From: an uncultured Candidatus Berkelbacteria bacterium
GTDB taxonomy: Bacteria; Patescibacteriota; UBA1384; XYA2-FULL-43-10; CAINNR01
Reading direction: 5' to 3'
DNA length: 64,000 nt
Assembly: GCA_903851235.1 (NCBI GenBank)
Contig: CAINNR010000030.1
Location: 13,210-77,209, forward strand
The notes beneath the pieces were generated by a model, which searched no databases, was not told the DNA's origin, and worked only from the letters and a program-made list of their open reading frames with translations. Shown here piece after piece: positions 2,673 to 25,502 of this stretch. Numbering within the stretch: the stretch's first letter is position 1; each line of letters begins with the position of its first letter. A program made the translations under genes and the position numbers.

Positions 2673-3932
2673 ATGTTAGATATTGAACTGATACGAAAAG
2701 AACCGGAGGGAATTAAAAAAGCCATTGCCAGAAAGGGCGCCGATCCGGCTTTAATCGACGAAGTGGTTTTGATTGATCGCAATCGTCGCCGAGTGTTATC
2801 CGAACTGGAACGGGCGCAGTCGGAGTTAAATCGCCACTCAAAGGACATCGCCAATTTGCACGGTCAGCAAAAAATTGATGCTATCAACAACGCCGGAATT
2901 TGGTCGGCCAAAGTCAAAGAGTTAAAACCGGAGGCTGATCGATCGCAAAGGGAGTTTGTGGATATAATGCTCCTAATTCCGAATCCGCCACTCGCCGATG
3001 TTATCGACGGCGCATCCGACAAAGAAAACACCGTAAACCGTACTGTCGGGGAGATATCGAAATTTTCCTTCAAACCACTCGATCATGTTGAGTTGGGAGA
3101 AAAACTCGACCTAATTGACATCGAACGCGCTGGAAAAATCTCCGGTTCACGCTTTTATTTTTTGAAAAATGAATTGGTCCAACTGGAGTTTGCCTTAGCG
3201 CAATATGCGATGGAGATCCTGACGGCAGAAAAATTTGTGCCGATGATCACACCGGTGCTTTTAAACCGCGAAGCAATGACTGGCGCCGGATATCTGCCGG
3301 CCGGCGAGGATGAAATTTATAAAACTCAGGATGACTTGTATTTGGTTGGAACGTCGGAGCAACCGCTGGCCGGATATCACAGTAATGAAATTATTGATGG
3401 AAAAAATTTGCCCTTACGTTACGCCGGGTTTTCTAGCTGTTTCAGGCGCGAAGCCGGCAGCCATGGTAAAGATGTCCGGGGGATTCTACGGGCGCACCAA
3501 TTTGACAAAGTTGAAATGTTTTCCTTTTGCTTGCCGGAAAATTCAGAAAAGGAACATGAATATTTGGTCTCGCTGGAGGAAAAAATCGTTTCCGGTCTCG
3601 GATTGCCATATCAAATTGTTAATATTTGTGCCGGCGATTTGGGCTCCCCGGCGGTGAAAAAATATGATGTTGAAACTTGGATGCCGGGGCAAGACCAATA
3701 TCGGGAAACCCACTCCTGTTCAAATTGCACTGATTTTCAAGCTCGTCGTCTTAATATCCGATATCGCGACAAAGACGGCAAGGTTGCGCCGCTCCACACT
3801 TTAAATGGCACGGCAATTGCCATTGGTCGAATGCTGATCGCGATTATGGAAAACGGCCAGCAAAAAGACGGCAGTATCAAAATCCCGGAAATACTTCACA
3901 AATCTCTTAATTTCAAGGAAATTAAGAGATAA
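2673..3932 (+). CDS. serS: seryl-tRNA synthetase
   Basis: N-terminal coiled-coil arm plus class II core (GYHSNEIIDGKNLPLRYAGFSSCFRREAGSHGKD). Confidence 0.95.
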   Translation: MLDIELIRKEPEGIKKAIARKGADPALIDEVVLIDRNRRRVLSELERAQSELNRHSKDIANLHGQQKIDAINNAGIWSAKVKELKPEADRSQREFVDIMLLIPNPPLADVIDGASDKENTVNRTVGEISKFSFKPLDHVELGEKLDLIDIERAGKISGSRFYFLKNELVQLEFALAQYAMEILTAEKFVPMITPVLLNREAMTGAGYLPAGEDEIYKTQDDLYLVGTSEQPLAGYHSNEIIDGKNLPLRYAGFSSCFRREAGSHGKDVRGILRAHQFDKVEMFSFCLPENSEKEHEYLVSLEEKIVSGLGLPYQIVNICAGDLGSPAVKKYDVETWMPGQDQYRETHSCSNCTDFQARRLNIRYRDKDGKVAPLHTLNGTAIAIGRMLIAIMENGQQKDGSIKIPEILHKSLNFKEIKR

Positions 3933-3941
3933 CGAATAACT

Positions 3942-3982
3942 AAAAACGTATAACTAATAACCATAGCCAAGTAGTTAATAAG
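3942..3982 (+). repeat. 41-nt intergenic repeat element, copy 2 (downstream of serS)
   Basis: aaaaacgtataactaataaccatagccaagtagttaataag. Followed by (aagttaaa)x3 at 3981-4007. Confidence 0.5.
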
Positions 3983-4036
3983 TTAAAAAGTTAAAAAGTT
4001 AAAGTTATTAATTATTAGTTTGAATAGGAGGCCCAA

Positions 4037-4414
4037 GTGCAAATTAATGTCGTGACGAAAGATGTTATCATCACGGCCCGTCAGAAATCCGATATTGAGA
4101 AAAAAATCAGTCGACTTAAAAAATATTTGAAACATGAAAGTCCGGTGAATATCGAAGTTCACTTAATTGACGACTCTGGGCCGAACAAAACCGGAGTGAC
4201 GCAGAGTGTGAAAATTGATGTTGTTTCCGAGCATTACAATATTCACATCGAGGAAAAAAAGAATAATATTATGAAGGCTTTCGCCAATGCGCTCCGATCA
4301 GTTGACCGCCAGGTCCGCGATCAGCATAAAAAAGAGATCCAAAAAGCCCAAACCGGTGGCGGAAGATTTGACAAAGTTTTTGGGATTTTGGGAAAATTCC
4401 GACGGAAGAAGTGA
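4037..4414 (+). CDS. hpf: ribosome hibernation promoting factor / RaiA-YfiA family (GTG start)
   Basis: GGAGG RBS 6 nt upstream of GTG. The beta-alpha-beta-beta-beta-alpha pattern of the translation (MQINVVTKDVIITARQKSDIEKKISRLKKY...VEVHLIDD...VKIDV) is typical of HPF. Confidence 0.8.
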   Translation: MQINVVTKDVIITARQKSDIEKKISRLKKYLKHESPVNIEVHLIDDSGPNKTGVTQSVKIDVVSEHYNIHIEEKKNNIMKAFANALRSVDRQVRDQHKKEIQKAQTGGGRFDKVFGILGKFRRKK

Positions 4415-4493
4415 TGTAACGTGTCATCCTCGTAAAGACGGGAATCCACAAATAGTTTTGTCACCCTAAACTCGATTCAGGATCTCATTAATA

Positions 4494-4527
4494 GAATAAA
4501 AAAACGAGCGGCCGTTTTGGCTGCTCG
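4494..4527 (-). terminator. intrinsic terminator for the minus-strand pentapeptide-repeat gene
   Basis: ACGAGCggccgttttggctGCTCGT stem followed by T-run on the minus strand. Confidence 0.6.
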
Positions 4528-4577
4528 TGGTGTTTGGTAAAAGGTGAGTATCAGTGAAAGTCGAAGATTCTGTGGAC

Positions 4578-5174
4578 TTATGCCCATGTTCTGATCAATT
4601 CGGCAGCAGCGAGATAATCTTCCCCGTCTTTGTCGTCGCTGTGATCCCTGTCGATATTCCGGAGAAAGTCGTCAAGAGTTCCCCAGAAGCAACCGGTTTT
4701 AATCATCGGCCCGTCTACATGTCTGACGGCGTAAAGAAGGTCACTGCGACTTCCAATTGGGCCAATGTTCAGAATTCCTTGCGCTTGAAAGAGATCAGTT
4801 CCTTCGAGTGTCGTGCCTTTAATAATGGTTTGACCAAAAATGGTTCTTTCAAGATTTGTTCGATACAGATAAGCGTTTGTTAGGTCAACCCCTGTCAGGT
4901 TGGCTCCATGCAGGTTGGCAGACTCTAGGTCACAACCGATCAATTTCGCGCCGGTAAGATCGGCATAACTTAAGTCTGCGTTTTTAAGGTTGACGTAATT
5001 ATGCCGAAAACCCTTATAATATTTAATTTGCAGGTCGAGGTTACGAAGATTTGCTCCCGACAATTCGACACCGCAAAGCGACTTGCGATTGTGTGCGGCC
5101 TCCTCAACTGCCGTCTTAACACTTCGACGTCTACAAGTGAAAATGACGTCACCATATGTGTTCTTGAGTTTCAT
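4578..5174 (-). CDS. pentapeptide-repeat protein (Qnr/MfpA-like fold), start moved to Met at 5174
   Basis: Tandem A(D/N)LxxA(N/D)LxGAxL pentapeptide repeats (ANLRNLDL, ADLSYADLTGAKLIGCDLESANLHGANLTGVDLTNAYL). GGAGG RBS 6 nt before ATG at 5174. The 5175-5387 extension in the track has no support. Confidence 0.75.
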   Translation of the reverse strand: MKLKNTYGDVIFTCRRRSVKTAVEEAAHNRKSLCGVELSGANLRNLDLQIKYYKGFRHNYVNLKNADLSYADLTGAKLIGCDLESANLHGANLTGVDLTNAYLYRTNLERTIFGQTIIKGTTLEGTDLFQAQGILNIGPIGSRSDLLYAVRHVDGPMIKTGCFWGTLDDFLRNIDRDHSDDKDGEDYLAAAELIRTWA

Positions 5175-5386
5175 CTCTTGCCTCCAAAAGCCGTGTTGTT
5201 TGCGCGATTTGATTCTAGCATTAAACTTTCCAATTATCAAGAGTGTTTTTGTGAGTTGAAAAAATAGGCACAAAGTGGTAAAGTAAAAGCATAAAAGGAG
5301 ATTCTGATGCAGATTTATCACGCAGATAACCGCAGACGAAATTAGTGACAATCGGCGTGAAAGTTTGGTGTAAGAATTACAACACA

Positions 5387-10363: not shown

Positions 10364-10441
10364 AATGTAAAATATAAAGTTCAAAATTATTGAGAGCATT
10401 TTATGCTCGAACCATAGTAGTGAATTCCGTTATTTTACATT
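10364..10441 (+). repeat. 11-bp inverted repeat (AATGTAAAATA...TATTTTACATT) enclosing an inner hairpin GAGCATtttATGCTC, in the gpmI-ftsE intergenic region
   Basis: Exact reverse-complement arms about 56 nt apart. Confidence 0.4.
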
Positions 10442-10467
10442 TTGATTTTTGAATTTTAAATTTTACC

Positions 10468-17548: not shown

Positions 17549-17551
17549 AAA

Positions 17552-17623
17552 AAGTCAAAATTAAAAAGTAAAAATTCAAAATTATAGGTCAAAATTAGTG
17601 ATTATTAATTAAAATTTTGACTT
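17552..17623 (+). repeat. 11-bp inverted repeat (AAGTCAAAATT...AATTTTGACTT) in the lemA to DUF4870 intergenic region
   Basis: Exact reverse-complement arms about 50 nt apart. Contains TTGACT -35-like hexamers. Confidence 0.35.
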
Positions 17624-17664
17624 TTGACTTATAACTTTTGAGCTAATCAAAGAAGGGAGAAGTT

Positions 17665-19131: not shown

Positions 19132-19146
19132 TTTTGCCCGTTTTTT
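19120..19146 (+). terminator. intrinsic terminator
   Basis: GCGGGCAAgtagttTTGCCCG followed by tttttt. Confidence 0.6.
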
Positions 19147-19220
19147 CTATTGAAAAACGGTCAAGAAAAAGCTAAGATTGATTTAGTGTTTTCATTTTTT
19201 AGTTTTGACATTTAAAATTT

Positions 19221-19262
19221 AACTTTTAACTTTTAACTTTTAACTTTTAACTTTTAATTTTT
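19221..19262 (+). repeat. heptamer tandem repeat (aactttt)x5 plus one degenerate unit, ending 11 nt before the htpX start
   Basis: Six consecutive 7-nt units, five of them exact. The same unit is at 17616-17629 and its reverse complement (aagttaaa)x3 is at 3981-4007. Confidence 0.7.
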
Positions 19263-19273
19263 GAGTTATTTTT

Positions 19274-22311: not shown

Positions 22312-22671
22312 ATGAAAAAGTTGAACCAGATTTACAAATGTAGCACTTGTGGTAACATTGTCGAAATTGTTACCGGTGGTGGTGGAGAATTGGTTTGTTG
22401 CGGAGCGCCGATGGAATTGCAAAGCGAAAAGTCCGGCGAAGAAGGGATGGAGAAGCATAAACCGGTGATTGAAGAATCAATGGTTTTGGTTGGCTCGGCC
22501 CCACATCCGATGGAAGCTGAACATCACATTGAGTGGATTGAAGTTTTGGAGGGTGATGATGTTTGCAGGAAAGTTTTATCGGTTGATGACAAACCGCAAG
22601 CGGAGTTTTGTAACAAAGATATCAAAGTCGCCCGCGCATATTGTAATATTCACGGACTGTGGAAAAACTGA
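22312..22671 (+). CDS. dfx: desulfoferrodoxin (2Fe superoxide reductase)
   Basis: N-terminal desulforedoxin CxxC...CC (KCSTCGNIVEIV...LVCCGAPM). C-terminal neelaredoxin-like H-rich domain (EKHKPVIE, HPMEAEHHIEWIEV, C, H). GGAGG RBS. Confidence 0.85.
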   Translation: MKKLNQIYKCSTCGNIVEIVTGGGGELVCCGAPMELQSEKSGEEGMEKHKPVIEESMVLVGSAPHPMEAEHHIEWIEVLEGDDVCRKVLSVDDKPQAEFCNKDIKVARAYCNIHGLWKN

Positions 22672-22734
22672 CCGTTGGTCAGAAAAATGAAATTCCAATT
22701 CTTATTTATCACGCAGATTTTCGCTGATAAAAAA

Positions 22735-22754
22735 CTACGCCAATTGTGGCGTAG
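22735..22754. terminator. hairpin CTACGCCAattgTGGCGTAG, T-run on the minus side (terminator for the 22774-23229 gene; weak for dfx)
   Basis: Perfect 8-bp stem. Followed on the minus strand by tttttt. Confidence 0.5.
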
Positions 22755-22773
22755 GTGGAATTTGGTCTTTGCT

Positions 22774-23229
22774 TTAGAAGGCAAGTTGTTGTATCAATAA
22801 TTCTTTATGATCGCCGAAACTCTGAGAAAGCGCAACACAGAATTTTAACAATTCCTCAATGTCATTGCCGGCAAAGATGCCAGAAGGATCAAGGCAGATT
22901 GCTTGCAAAATACACAGTTTTGACGTAAGTTCGGCACGCAATTTTGGAAAGACGGTTCCAACGGTACCATCGTCACCGGCACGGTATTGGTATTCAAGCG
23001 CCTGTGAAACGATCGAAAATTCGCCATTGTACCATGACACTTGAATAAGATGATAATCTTTAGCACCTTCACCCAATACTTGGCTGACATTGCAGAGCCA
23101 GCTTAACAATGGTTCCAGATGTTTAGAGATATCTACCATGTTGATTTTCCCGAGTCTGATATTGTCAACGTCGATCATTGCGGCTGTTACAATCCGAGAC
23201 ATTTCGTCAACTTCACTCAGATCGAGCAT
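22774..23229 (-). CDS. hypothetical protein (151 aa), divergent from the heliorhodopsin operon
   Basis: GGGAGG RBS 6 nt before ATG at 23229. Confidence 0.55.
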   Translation of the reverse strand: MLDLSEVDEMSRIVTAAMIDVDNIRLGKINMVDISKHLEPLLSWLCNVSQVLGEGAKDYHLIQVSWYNGEFSIVSQALEYQYRAGDDGTVGTVFPKLRAELTSKLCILQAICLDPSGIFAGNDIEELLKFCVALSQSFGDHKELLIQQLAF

Positions 23230-23268
23230 CTCGCTTACCTCCCGCTTGGGAATGTTGTTGCAATCAGC

Positions 23269-23295
23269 TTAACAAAAAGTATATATCTTTGTCAA
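23269..23295. promoter_or_regulatory. palindromic operator-like motif copy 1 (TTAACAAAAAGTATATATCTTTGTCAA)
   Basis: Imperfect dyad around TATATA. Near-identical copy at 25105-25131, on the other side of the heliorhodopsin locus, also in a divergent promoter region. Confidence 0.35.
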
Positions 23296-23319
23296 AATAT
23301 TAGCTTTTTGGAGATAAAA

Positions 23320-24018
23320 ATGTCAGAAATTATTGACCCAAACGAACGTGAACACTTGGTATTAAAATATGGTGAGCAAATAAAAAACATTGTTGGTTAT
23401 AACGATCTCTCGCCTGAGGAACAGCGAGATTTGCGATACGACCCACGCAAAGATGTTTCAGTTGGACTGGATAAAATTTTCTGTCATAACGTTTATAATC
23501 GGGAAGACGGTAATTTTGCGATCGAACAATCCGGAGATGATACTTTGTTTATCGCCTATGTCCTTTCGGTTTTGGGTTTGCGTGATGGCAGGGCGCTTTT
23601 GAAATCCTATGAACGAATGGCGCCGGCGAATCAGGGTGTGGATCTGAAACAGTTGAAAGTAGAATCGGAGACAATCGATCATTCCGTTGTTGAACACTTT
23701 CTGGAAGAATTTGAGAAATCAAGGATGGATTTAACCGCAGAATTTGATGATGGTATGGATTTGGAGAACTCAACTCGATCGGAGGATATTAAACAATACT
23801 TGCGCGGTTTGATAATCTCCGGATCGTGTTTGAAACATTGTGAGATCTTGTTGCCGTTTTTTAGCCCAGAGCAGACAGCCCAAGTTGAGGAAATTATTGG
23901 AACTGTTATCGAAATGAGAAAAAAAAGAAATGACGACTTTGCAAAAAAGATAAATAATGAGGCAAAAGAGAGAAGAATTGCCGGCTTGGTAAATAAAATC
24001 GACGTTATTGATAATTAA
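23320..24018 (+). CDS. hypothetical protein (232 aa), immediately upstream of heliorhodopsin and probably co-transcribed
   Basis: GGAG RBS before ATG at 23320. The 23119 start in the track overlaps the divergent gene. Stop lies 15 nt before the heliorhodopsin RBS. Confidence 0.55.
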   Translation: MSEIIDPNEREHLVLKYGEQIKNIVGYNDLSPEEQRDLRYDPRKDVSVGLDKIFCHNVYNREDGNFAIEQSGDDTLFIAYVLSVLGLRDGRALLKSYERMAPANQGVDLKQLKVESETIDHSVVEHFLEEFEKSRMDLTAEFDDGMDLENSTRSEDIKQYLRGLIISGSCLKHCEILLPFFSPEQTAQVEEIIGTVIEMRKKRNDDFAKKINNEAKERRIAGLVNKIDVIDN

Positions 24019-24033
24019 TTTAGGGAGGAAAAA

Positions 24034-24795
24034 ATGGAGAAAAAATTGCAAGGGTTGCGGAAATTTAATTTGTTTATGGCGCTTTTGCATTTTGGCCAAG
24101 GAGTGGCGATGCTTTGGCTGTCCAGCAGTTTCAAATTACCGGTGATGAGTTCGTATTTGAAGTTTGATGTTGCGACTAGAACATTACAACCAAATCCATC
24201 AACATTATTCAGTTTGAAAATTGGCCCAATGATTGCGATTTTTCTCTTTCTGTCGGCTTTGGCTCATCTTTTAATCAGCACGGTTTTTAATGATTGGTAT
24301 AATAAAAATTTAGCTCGCGGTATCAATTTTGCTCGCTGGATCGAGTACTCCTTTTCGTCATCAATTATGATTATTGTCATAGCCATGCTGGTTGGAGTTT
24401 ATGACATCGGTGCGCTCATCCTCTTATTTGTTTTGAATGCGACAATGATTTTGTTCGGATGGATGATGGAACTTCATAATCAGTCGACTTCAAAGACTAA
24501 TTGGACATCATTCATTTTCGGTTGTATCGCCGGTTTGGCGACTTGGGTTGTAATTGCTCTTTATCTTTTTGGCTCCGGCGACAGCGCTCATCATGCGCCA
24601 AATTTCGTTTACTGGATTTACTTTTCAATCTTTATCTTTTTCAACTGCTTTGCCATCAATCAAGTTTTGCAGTACAAAAAAGTCGGATCGTGGAAGGATT
24701 ATCTATACGGCGAACGCGCCTACATTATTCTGTCATTGATTGCCAAATCACTTTTAGCCTGGCAAGTTTTCGCCGGCACTTTGCGACCAATGTAA
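24034..24795 (+). CDS. heliorhodopsin (7-TM retinal-binding photoreceptor, inverted topology family)
   Basis: Seven TM helices. Strong similarity, recalled from memory, to heliorhodopsin 48C12: FNLFMALLHFGQG; RWIEYSFSSSIMIIVIA with the counter-ion Glu; NATMILFGWMME; FIFGCIAGLATW; FNCFAINQVLQYKKVGSWKDYLYGERAYIILSLIAKSLLAWQVF with the Schiff-base Lys. GGGAGG RBS. Confidence 0.85.
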   Translation: MEKKLQGLRKFNLFMALLHFGQGVAMLWLSSSFKLPVMSSYLKFDVATRTLQPNPSTLFSLKIGPMIAIFLFLSALAHLLISTVFNDWYNKNLARGINFARWIEYSFSSSIMIIVIAMLVGVYDIGALILLFVLNATMILFGWMMELHNQSTSKTNWTSFIFGCIAGLATWVVIALYLFGSGDSAHHAPNFVYWIYFSIFIFFNCFAINQVLQYKKVGSWKDYLYGERAYIILSLIAKSLLAWQVFAGTLRPM

Positions 24796-24804
24796 CAAAT
24801 AAAT

Positions 24805-24825
24805 AAGGTGAGCCTTGCTCACCTT
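24805..24825. terminator. bidirectional hairpin AAGGTGAGCcttGCTCACCTT between the convergent heliorhodopsin and 24832-25062 genes
   Basis: Perfect 9-bp stem with a 3-nt loop. AT-rich flanks on both sides. Confidence 0.55.
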
Positions 24826-24831
24826 ATGTGT

Positions 24832-25062
24832 TCAGTACCCAAACCAAGTATGAAACCTTTCGGACTTTCCATTATCGAATTTAAGGTAATCAATGTCTGC
24901 ACCGTCTTCTTTGATAACCGCTATAATACCTTCCCTAGTGTTCGTCATTTCCAACTGACCGTAACCCCCATTAGATGGCTCACAATCGATGATTGCGATC
25001 AATGGTAATTTAAGCTGTTCTGCCCTTCGCAGAATTCTGGCGAGAATTTCTCCGGTTATCAT
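24832..25062 (-). CDS. small hypothetical protein (76 aa)
   Basis: AAGGAG RBS 8 nt before ATG at 25062. The longer track ORF to 25320 has no RBS. Confidence 0.45.
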   Translation of the reverse strand: MITGEILARILRRAEQLKLPLIAIIDCEPSNGGYGQLEMTNTREGIIAVIKEDGADIDYLKFDNGKSERFHTWFGY

Positions 25063-25104
25063 GCCAGTGTCTCCTTGGTTCAGGTGGTTCGTCACTGTGA
25101 TGAG

Positions 25105-25131
25105 TTTAACAAAAAATGTATATTTTATCAA
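25105..25131. promoter_or_regulatory. palindromic operator-like motif copy 2 (TTTAACAAAAAATGTATATTTTATCAA)
   Basis: Matches the 23269-23295 motif at about 22 of 27 positions with one indel. Confidence 0.35.
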
Positions 25132-25156: not shown

Positions 25157-25357
25157 ATGACATCTGACCAATTGCCAGTTTGGTTTTCGGTTGTGATTTT
25201 AGTTTTAACCCTTTGGAGTTTGCCGTGGAAGGGAATCGCACTTTGGAAAGCGGCAAAAAACAACGACATCGCCTGGTTTGTTATAATGATGATTGTTAAT
25301 ACCATCGGAATATTAGACATCCTCTACATTTATATTTGGGGCAAGAAAAAAGCCTAA
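25157..25357 (+). CDS. small two-TM membrane protein (DUF5652-like)
   Basis: LWSLPWKGIALWKAAKNNDIAWFVIMMIVNTIGILDILYI pattern. Confidence 0.55.
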   Translation: MTSDQLPVWFSVVILVLTLWSLPWKGIALWKAAKNNDIAWFVIMMIVNTIGILDILYIYIWGKKKA

Positions 25358-25502
25358 TTTCGTCGCCCCGGTTGACATTATCATTTAAAAAGTGTACTAT
25401 AATAGTATACAAATATTGTTTGGTAGCATTTCTCCGGCTAAATTTGAGGGAGATCTAACGAAACAATTGTTAATCTGATTGTTGTTTTTTTAATTTAAAA
25501 AC

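Follow-up and report, generated by a model that had tools for sequence, protein, structure and literature searches.

Extended -10 promoters and the two sites of the heliorhodopsin locus

Sigma-70/sigma-A promoters of the extended -10 type, which carry the TGn motif of the '-16 region', are known from E. coli and especially from low-GC Gram-positive bacteria. Bidirectional bacterial promoters based on the symmetry of the -10 element, in which two -10 elements overlap, were reportedly described by Warman et al. in 2021. In this work, two similar sites, S1 (23269-23295, TTAACAAAAAGTATATATCTTTGTCAA) and S2 (25105-25131, TTTAACAAAAAATGTATATTTTATCAA; both as in the window sequence), were analyzed in a 64-kb stretch of DNA of an uncultured Candidatus Berkelbacteria bacterium (64,000 nt of contig CAINNR010000030.1), hereafter the window. 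The sites flank the gene of heliorhodopsin (HeR), S1 being located upstream of the minus-strand gene p151 and S2 upstream of the minus-strand gene p76. The anatomy of the sites, their conservation and specificity and the synteny of the locus were all observed directly, and on these grounds S1 and S2 are probably two related copies of a sigma-70-type extended -10 promoter (TTGAYA, spacer of 17-18 nt, TGnTAARCT), specific for the gene family of p151. The kind of element is known; the instance formed by S1 and S2 and the gene family are new.

A sequence-only reading of the same DNA had interpreted the sites as a 27-nt palindromic operator, by which one dimeric regulator, perhaps the 76-aa protein p76, would control the HeR cluster as a unit. 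The sequences and coordinates that it gave for both sites are exact, both sites do lie in divergent intergenic regions as it stated, and its assignments of HeR and of the DUF5652 gene hold in Pfam.

Promoter structure on the minus strand

The elements of both sites on the minus strand are as follows.

23266-23295, minus strand: S1 promoter block of the p151 gene, 30 nt, TTGACAAAGATATATACTTTTTGTTAAGCT, identified by sigma-70 match and by the blocks of homologs
S1 elements, minus strand: -35 box TTGACA, 23295-23290; ATATAC, 23284-23279; TG, 23274-23273; -10 box TAAGCT, 23271-23266
25103-25131, minus strand: S2 promoter block of the p76 gene, 29 nt, TTGATAAAATATACATTTTTTGTTAAACT, identified by promoter scan and by the family pattern
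S2 elements, minus strand: -35 box TTGATA, 25131-25126; ATATAC, 25123-25118; TG, 25111-25110; -10 box TAAACT, 25108-25103

S1 reads TTGACA-AAGATATATACTTTTTGT-TAAGCT, with a spacer of 18 nt and the extended -10 TGtTAAGCT, and S2 reads TTGATA-AAATATACATTTTTTGT-TAAACT, with a spacer of 17 nt and the extended -10 TGtTAAACT. The -35 boxes agree with TTGACA at 6/6 positions in S1 and at 5/6 in S2; in the -10 boxes of both sites, positions 2 and 6 are A and T, respectively, with TG one base ahead. S1 (score 11.3) is the best sigma-70 match upstream of p151, the end of its -10 box lying 36 nt from the ATG; the -10 box of S2 (score 10.5) ends 40 nt from the ATG of p76. Both start codons are preceded by Shine-Dalgarno sequences, GGGAGG for p151 and AAGGAG, 9 nt before the ATG, for p76.

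A survey of every window gene with an upstream gap showed that strong promoter-like sites in the window have the form TTGAnA-17-TGnTAnnnT, about ten others being present besides S1 and S2. For seven of the strong sites, among them S1 and S2, the distance to the start codon is 36-41 nt. This empirical promoter form for the candidate phyla radiation (CPR) aids annotation. In the related locus L166, the gene caller began P0008 (169 aa) at the TTG of the -35 box (L166 1223), which adds about 21 spurious N-terminal residues. No Rfam match was found in the window; accordingly, an RNA element is unlikely.

Similarity of S1 and S2

The likeness of the sites noted in the sequence-only reading was borne out, with 22/27 identical positions without gaps and 27/33 with one gap. 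The best local alignment pairs 23263-23295 with 25100-25131 (27/33 identical, one gap) and reaches 5-6 nt farther to the left than the 27-nt limits given earlier. In a repeat search, the ungapped 22/27 match (repeat family D1) is the top direct repeat of the region, and when both intergenic regions were shuffled with their dinucleotides kept, roughly 3 trials in 10,000 equalled the alignment score. The core AGYTTAACAAAAA occurs at S1 and S2 only in the 64-kb window, with 0 or 1 mismatch allowed. Occurrence of the motif at many unrelated intergenic sites, which would have deprived it of meaning, was thus not observed in the 64 kb, and the further sites that a regulon might provide were also sought, a third site being absent from the window.

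Among all intergenic pairs in the window, S1-S2 ranks about 16th, the higher ranks being accounted for by other repeats. Among the 120 pairs formed by the window's 16 strongest promoter-like sites, S1-S2 has the highest score, 20, followed by 15, 14 and 14 (mean 8.45, standard deviation (sd) 2.45). S1 or S2 paired with other window promoters gives scores of 12-14, so generic promoter grammar explains much of the likeness, but not all of it.

The p151 gene family and conservation of the promoter block

The p151 family was recovered by a full HMMER scan only, and not by a word-indexed search: an exhaustive HMMER search of 1.84 billion representatives gave seven homologs of p151 with 31-44% identity. 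Members of the family, present in the window, in L166-L176 and in L006, are of about 145 aa and share the conserved motifs W-L-C, LQAIC-DPS and FC. While p151-family proteins are 31-44% identical, HeR and typA proteins are 81-95% identical between the same genomes, and the p151 family is, by this divergence, rapidly evolving.

The block TTGACAAA..ATATAC..TGnTAnnnT was found upstream of every p151 homolog with enough sequence (homologs P0008-P0013). It reads TTGACAAAGATATATACCTATTGTTACACT in L167 and L171, TTGACAAAAGCATATACTTTTTGCTAAATT in L168-170, TTGACAAAAGAATATACTTGGTGATAATAT in L173-175 and TTGACAAAATATACTTTTTGCTATGAT in L166, and is present in a shifted variant in L172. All ortholog blocks carry TGnTAnnnT, and their spacers are mostly of 18 nt, with 15 nt in L166. 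The comparison with related genomes suggested by the sequence-only reading therefore did reveal conservation, namely upstream of p151 homologs.

The pattern TTGAYAAA-N0-3-ATATAC matches the upstream regions of the family and S2 only, in 1.15 Mb of related loci searched on both strands. Five phage matches to the DNA pattern were rejected as unrelated promoters with no family gene downstream. Family blocks are 73-87% identical to one another, compared with about 55-60% for the flanks and 5' untranslated regions (UTRs) and 61-64% for coding DNA. In the p151 family, conservation is higher in the promoter than in the coding part of the gene. The identity of S1 and S2, 83%, falls inside the ortholog range, and S2 is 70-83% identical to the family promoters, inside or just under their own range. 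As a control, the typA promoter was compared in the same genomes: 24-28 of its 30 positions are kept, including 12-16 of 17 in the spacer. Since the typA promoter is equally conserved, spacer included, ordinary selection on a promoter is enough to explain the conservation of the block.

Synteny in related genomes

Loci of HeR from other species were compared in 80 genomes and on 80 metagenome contigs (160 loci). The organism groups with Berkelbacteria-like Patescibacteria, and the best HeR identities are 81-86%. The S1/S2 motif was found in none of the 160 HeR loci. In L087, SOR (the gene of a desulfoferrodoxin-type superoxide reductase), HeR, DUF5652 and typA follow one another on one strand, with gaps of 28 and 50 nt and without the motif; HeR-DUF5652-typA, also without the motif, was found in L007. 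The same order is present in L086, with a 602-aa gene inserted after HeR. A tightly spaced SOR-HeR-DUF5652 operon (L087 2609-4019, L007 4980-5997, L168 474-2432) seems to represent the ancestral arrangement in Berkelbacteria-like genomes.

Close relatives without the antisense gene (HeR 81-86% identical) have this tight plus-strand SOR-HeR-DUF5652 arrangement, from which it follows that the window holds two lineage-specific insertions. One extends from 22672 to about 24018, between SOR and HeR, and comprises p151, S1 and the orphan gene p232; the other, from 24796 to about 25140, comprises a hairpin, p76 and S2.

Genes of the p151 family occupy one fixed slot, antisense directly after HeR, in L168-170, L171, L167 and L006. 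In L168-170, M48, p190, SOR and HeR are followed by the antisense family gene and then by DUF5652 and typA; in L171, L167 and L006, the antisense gene likewise follows HeR. HeR is absent from L173-175, in which the family gene is located between p190 and NYN-ligA. In the window, p76 fills the slot held by the p151-family gene in relatives.

The slot between HeR and DUF5652 looks like a hot spot of gene turnover. The 602-aa gene of L086 lies in it on the plus strand (3452-5260) and is radical-SAM-like by eye, no family search having been made. In L006, the start of an IS3-like transposase gene adjoins a degenerate p151 homolog.

Origin of S2 and the proposed scheme

Alone among the copies of the block, S2 has no recognizable family gene behind it, yet it is located in the slot of the family. 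Its position in the ancestral slot indicates that S1 and S2 are likely promoter copies by descent. Under p76, a possible remnant of a family gene was detected.

24855-24995, minus strand: tentative decayed p151-family coding trace, in a frame different from p76, with three stop codons

The trace gives 8.5 bits with the family hidden Markov model (HMM) over profile positions 61-114, a score that one dinucleotide shuffle in 1000 and none of the 162 other window tiles attained, and P0011 aligns to it with 33% identity over 48 residues. It is weakly consistent with a decayed second family member whose promoter outlived the gene. Since p76 is equipped with a Shine-Dalgarno sequence, a start codon and a terminator of its own and has a predicted fold with a pLDDT of 71, it may be a real young gene.

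In the scheme proposed here, transcription itself, the duplication history and the activity on the plus strand are inferred. Genes of the p151 family stand antisense just after HeR or, in genomes that lack HeR, behind the preceding gene. In the genome of the window, the intact family member, together with S1 and p232, is located upstream of HeR, and the ancestral downstream slot would retain the second promoter copy, S2, now presumably driving p76, whose open reading frame (ORF) possibly covers what is left of a second family member. The holoenzyme of RNA polymerase would read each block on the minus strand, with transcription starting about 30 nt before the start codon, and p232 and HeR would probably also be served by the mirror image of S1, acting as a weaker promoter on the plus strand. 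The insertion would have broken the ancestral co-transcription of HeR with SOR.

Possible activity on the plus strand

A candidate promoter for p232 and HeR was found on the opposite strand of S1.

23269-23298, plus strand: candidate p232-heliorhodopsin promoter, TTAACA-18-TGtCAAAAT, score 7.7

This mirror promoter ends 21 nt before the ATG of p232 (23320). In L168, the mirror sequence is TTAGCA-18-TGtCAAGAT, 22 nt before the start of DUF5652. Mirror promoters arise because the complement of the -35 box yields TG and the start of a -10 box. The predicted plus-strand promoter of S1 is weaker than the minus-strand one, and the mirror promoter of S2 is poor. In L173 and L166, whose intergenic regions are long, a separate promoter at a distance serves the divergent gene. 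The central TATATA/TATATT was also considered as a plus-strand -10 box and rejected, the matching -35 boxes being poor and not conserved.

Alternative explanations

The palindromic operator of the sequence-only reading is very improbable and is largely refuted by comparative data. It is favored by the presence of two similar sites in both divergent regions flanking HeR and by the outer arms of S1, TTAACAAAAA and TCTTTGTCAA, which are complementary at 8 of 10 positions. However, S1 is self-complementary at 16/27 positions, a level that 90 of the window's 4661 intergenic 27-mers attain (2%), and S2 at 14/27, or at 18/26 in its best register, met by 18 intergenic 26-mer windows (0.4%). With such levels found in 2% and 0.4% of intergenic windows, palindromy is not a distinguishing feature, and the dyad symmetry noted for the sites comes down to values (16/27 and 18/26) near the intergenic background. 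The apparent palindrome is the pseudo-symmetry of the -35 box (TTGACA) with the complement of the extended -10 (TGTTAA). In orthologous sites, the left arm TTGACAAA is invariant, whereas the right arms (TGTTACACT, TGCTAAATT, TGATAATAT and TGCTATGAT, with the variants TTGTTAC, TTGCTAA, GTGATAA and TTGCTAT) drift like a -10 element; the second half-site is not conserved, and the outer half-sites of S1/S2-type blocks do not co-vary among orthologs. Elsewhere only one site is present, tied to the antisense gene; it occurs without HeR in L173-175 and is absent where HeR lacks the antisense gene. The block thus tracks the minus-strand genes, contrary to the supposed control of the HeR cluster. Nor is p76 supported as the regulator, being an orphan of one organism with a predicted structure of one helix and four strands and no match to a DNA-binding fold. 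From the earlier proposal there remains a shared cis element of one kind, located in promoter regions and kept in other genomes; the single dimeric regulator of the cluster is not supported. The possibility of a dispersed repeat or miniature mobile element was also tested and failed, with only two copies in the 64 kb; unlike a mobile element, each copy of the block keeps a set distance from the gene start that it precedes.

Several observations weigh against a plain promoter shared by descent. The -10 hexamers are poor compared with consensus (TAAGCT 3/6, TAAACT 4/6) and rely on TG, the copy in L166 has a spacer of only 15 nt, the transcription start sites of S1 and S2 are predictions only, and the coding trace is weak evidence of a decayed paralog under S2. 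The seven distinct family promoters share an unchanged ATATAC, held at 7-9 nt from the -10 box but at -1 to 5 nt from the -35 box, a regularity for which the -35/-10 model gives no explanation. The likeness of S1 and S2 as the top pair fits shared regulation as well as shared descent. Accordingly, a promoter combined with the operator of a trans-acting regulator around ATATAC, for example a light- or oxidative-stress-responsive repressor, has to be considered, although it is rather unlikely. Such a regulator would co-control the family gene and the divergent gene via the mirror promoter, and both copies together would couple p232-heliorhodopsin, p151, p76 and DUF5652. This view draws on ATATAC kept in position although the proteins are only 31-44% identical, on local dyads formed by the A-/T-tract flanks (AAAGCATATACTTT in L168 and AAAATATACATTTT in S2), on S1-S2 as the window's top promoter pair, and on the desulfoferrodoxin nearby together with the published link of the HeR context to oxidative stress (PMC8612252, PMC9166423). 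Against it, the spacer of the typA promoter is equally conserved in the same genomes, the symmetry is at background level without co-variation of outer half-sites, the T-tract side is not kept in L167, L171 and L173, unrelated phage promoters also show TTGACAAA..ATATAC..TG, and no third site exists in the 64 kb; no regulator gene was recognized nearby, the p76 and p151 models showing no DNA-binding fold and p232 having no family match. A single trans-acting factor, perhaps encoded at a distance, is conceivable but is not required by any result here. Chance likeness of two unrelated AT-rich promoters hardly comes into question: generic promoter pairs in the window do score 12-15 on the same scale, and about 15 other intergenic pairs score higher through other repeats, but the shuffle P is about 3e-4, S1-S2 exceeds the average promoter pair by 4.7 sd, and S2, located in the syntenic slot of the family, fits a pattern that is specific to the family and gave no false positive in 1.15 Mb. 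A MerR-type spacer operator was rejected, the spacers being of 15-18 nt and not 19-20 nt.

Genes and other features of the locus

The remaining features of the locus are listed below.

22312-22671: desulfoferrodoxin-type superoxide reductase (SOR) gene, assigned by Pfam
22735-22754, minus strand: intrinsic terminator-like hairpin and T-run, adjoining the stop codon of p151
22774-23229, minus strand: p151 gene, 151 aa, of a rare uncharacterized helical-bundle family
23320-24018, plus strand: p232 orphan gene, 232 aa, 16 nt upstream of heliorhodopsin
24034-24795, plus strand: heliorhodopsin (HeR) gene, Pfam PF18761, E = 1.5e-105
24803-24827: 11-pair hairpin separating the convergent genes of heliorhodopsin and p76, a likely terminator, also inverted repeat I15
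24832-25062, minus strand: p76 orphan gene, 76 aa, in the slot of the p151 homolog of relatives
25157-25357, plus strand: DUF5652 gene, Pfam PF18893

For p151, p232 and p76, nothing significant was found in Pfam, NCBIfam, PHROGs and PADLOC; an AccA-like match of p76 (E = 0.04) and a scaffolding-protein match of p232 (E = 0.004) were dismissed as noise. In the word-indexed search, p232 matched only itself among 5.8 billion proteins, and p151 and p76 returned the queries alone; p232 is also absent from the relatives. Similarity of p151 to p76 or p232 was sought and not found, as were remnants of neighboring genes within the p232 region. No relatives that would point to a viral origin were found in IMG/VR. 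The model of p76 (pLDDT 71, single sequence) comprises one helix and four strands and has no PDB match; the model of p151 (pLDDT 85, pTM 0.81) is an all-helical plain bundle without a specific fold match. Neither model contains a helix-turn-helix or ribbon-helix-helix fold.

Contigs of the same organism (L001-L005) are 100% identical, and a 'variant' in L002 proved to be an N-gap and not a polymorphism, so the same-organism contigs give no variation. No tRNA match was found anywhere in the window. The small number of ORFs at about 60069-64000 is due to one long gene (>733 aa in L182) running off the window end.

Other repeats and conserved elements

The promoter of typA/bipA, TTGACAAA.TGAGAAAAA.AG.GTA.TATT, is conserved in the window (25372-25502), L087 (4044-4176), L007, L086, L170 and L171, the window's own spacer having diverged. 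It is followed by a leader of about 100 nt with a conserved start, ATATTGTTTGGTAGA, and a T-run before the ATG; this leader has no Rfam match and may be an undescribed leader element. The sequence CAATCAGCTTAACAA at the -10 side of S1 (23261-23275) recurs in inverted form (14/15) as TTGTTAATCTGATTG within the leader of typA (25467-25481), which is probably due to chance.

An intergenic repeat of 42 nt, TAAAAACGCATAGCTAATAACCATAACTAAGTAGTTAATTAG, is present at 2578-2619 and 3941-3982, flanking the gene at 2673-3932, its copies being 37/42 identical; a similar string, ACGCATAACTAATAGCGAATAGCC, occupies the HeR-DUF5652 gap of L087 (about 3765-3800). The tandem-like sequences TTTTGACTTTTGACTT / AAAGTTAAAAGTT are common to the AT-rich intergenic regions 10364-10467, 17549-17664, 19132-19273 and 59100-59186, and pairs of these regions outscore S1-S2. 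A box, GATTTATCACGCAGATAA, with flanking similarity was found in three intergenic regions, at about 1097-1156, about 5276-5335 and 22684-22770; the last of these regions separates SOR from the terminator of p151.

Significance and comparison with known systems

The motif represents a modest regulatory finding, most readily understood as an ordinary extended -10 promoter present twice by descent, and not as an operator of the photoreceptor. Heliorhodopsin has been linked to oxidative stress (PMC8612252, PMC9166423), and the ancestral SOR-heliorhodopsin-DUF5652 operon fits this proposed link. The function of heliorhodopsin is largely open, which makes the recurrent neighbor of the p151 family a testable lead. 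It is improbable, although conceivable, that the block, with its invariant ATATAC core, is the control point of an undescribed light- or redox-switched module of Berkelbacteria-like CPR bacteria, in which a rapidly evolving, cysteine-bearing four-helix-bundle family stands antisense by heliorhodopsin and superoxide reductase; if so, the duplicated block would couple heliorhodopsin expression to a light/redox response in the genome of the window.

Similar to operators of the TetR, Fur/PerR and MerR types, the sites lie over or between the -35 and -10 boxes, are AT-rich, show a partial dyad and stand between divergent genes; unlike these operators, they are not significantly symmetric, and a second half-site is not conserved. 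They differ from the MerR type also in the spacer, 17-18 nt versus 19-20 nt, and no regulator gene or regulon was found.

S1 and the block of L168 resemble compact divergent promoters in that one short AT-rich block seemingly serves both strands and the symmetry of the promoter elements itself makes the promoter of the opposite strand. Unlike the class reportedly described by Warman et al., each -35 box at S1 and L168 overlaps the extended -10 of the other strand, and the predicted starts are about 45 bp apart; moreover, S1 has a weak promoter on the plus strand and S2 a doubtful one.

Compared with extended -10 promoters, S1 and S2 are distinguished by unusually poor -10 boxes (TAAGCT, TAAACT) and by the invariant ATATAC in the spacer, their starts being predicted. 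They share with these promoters a TTGACA-like -35 box, a spacer of 17-18 nt, TG before TAnnnT, a T-rich stretch before the TG, and a position 30-40 nt upstream of a start codon led by a Shine-Dalgarno sequence.

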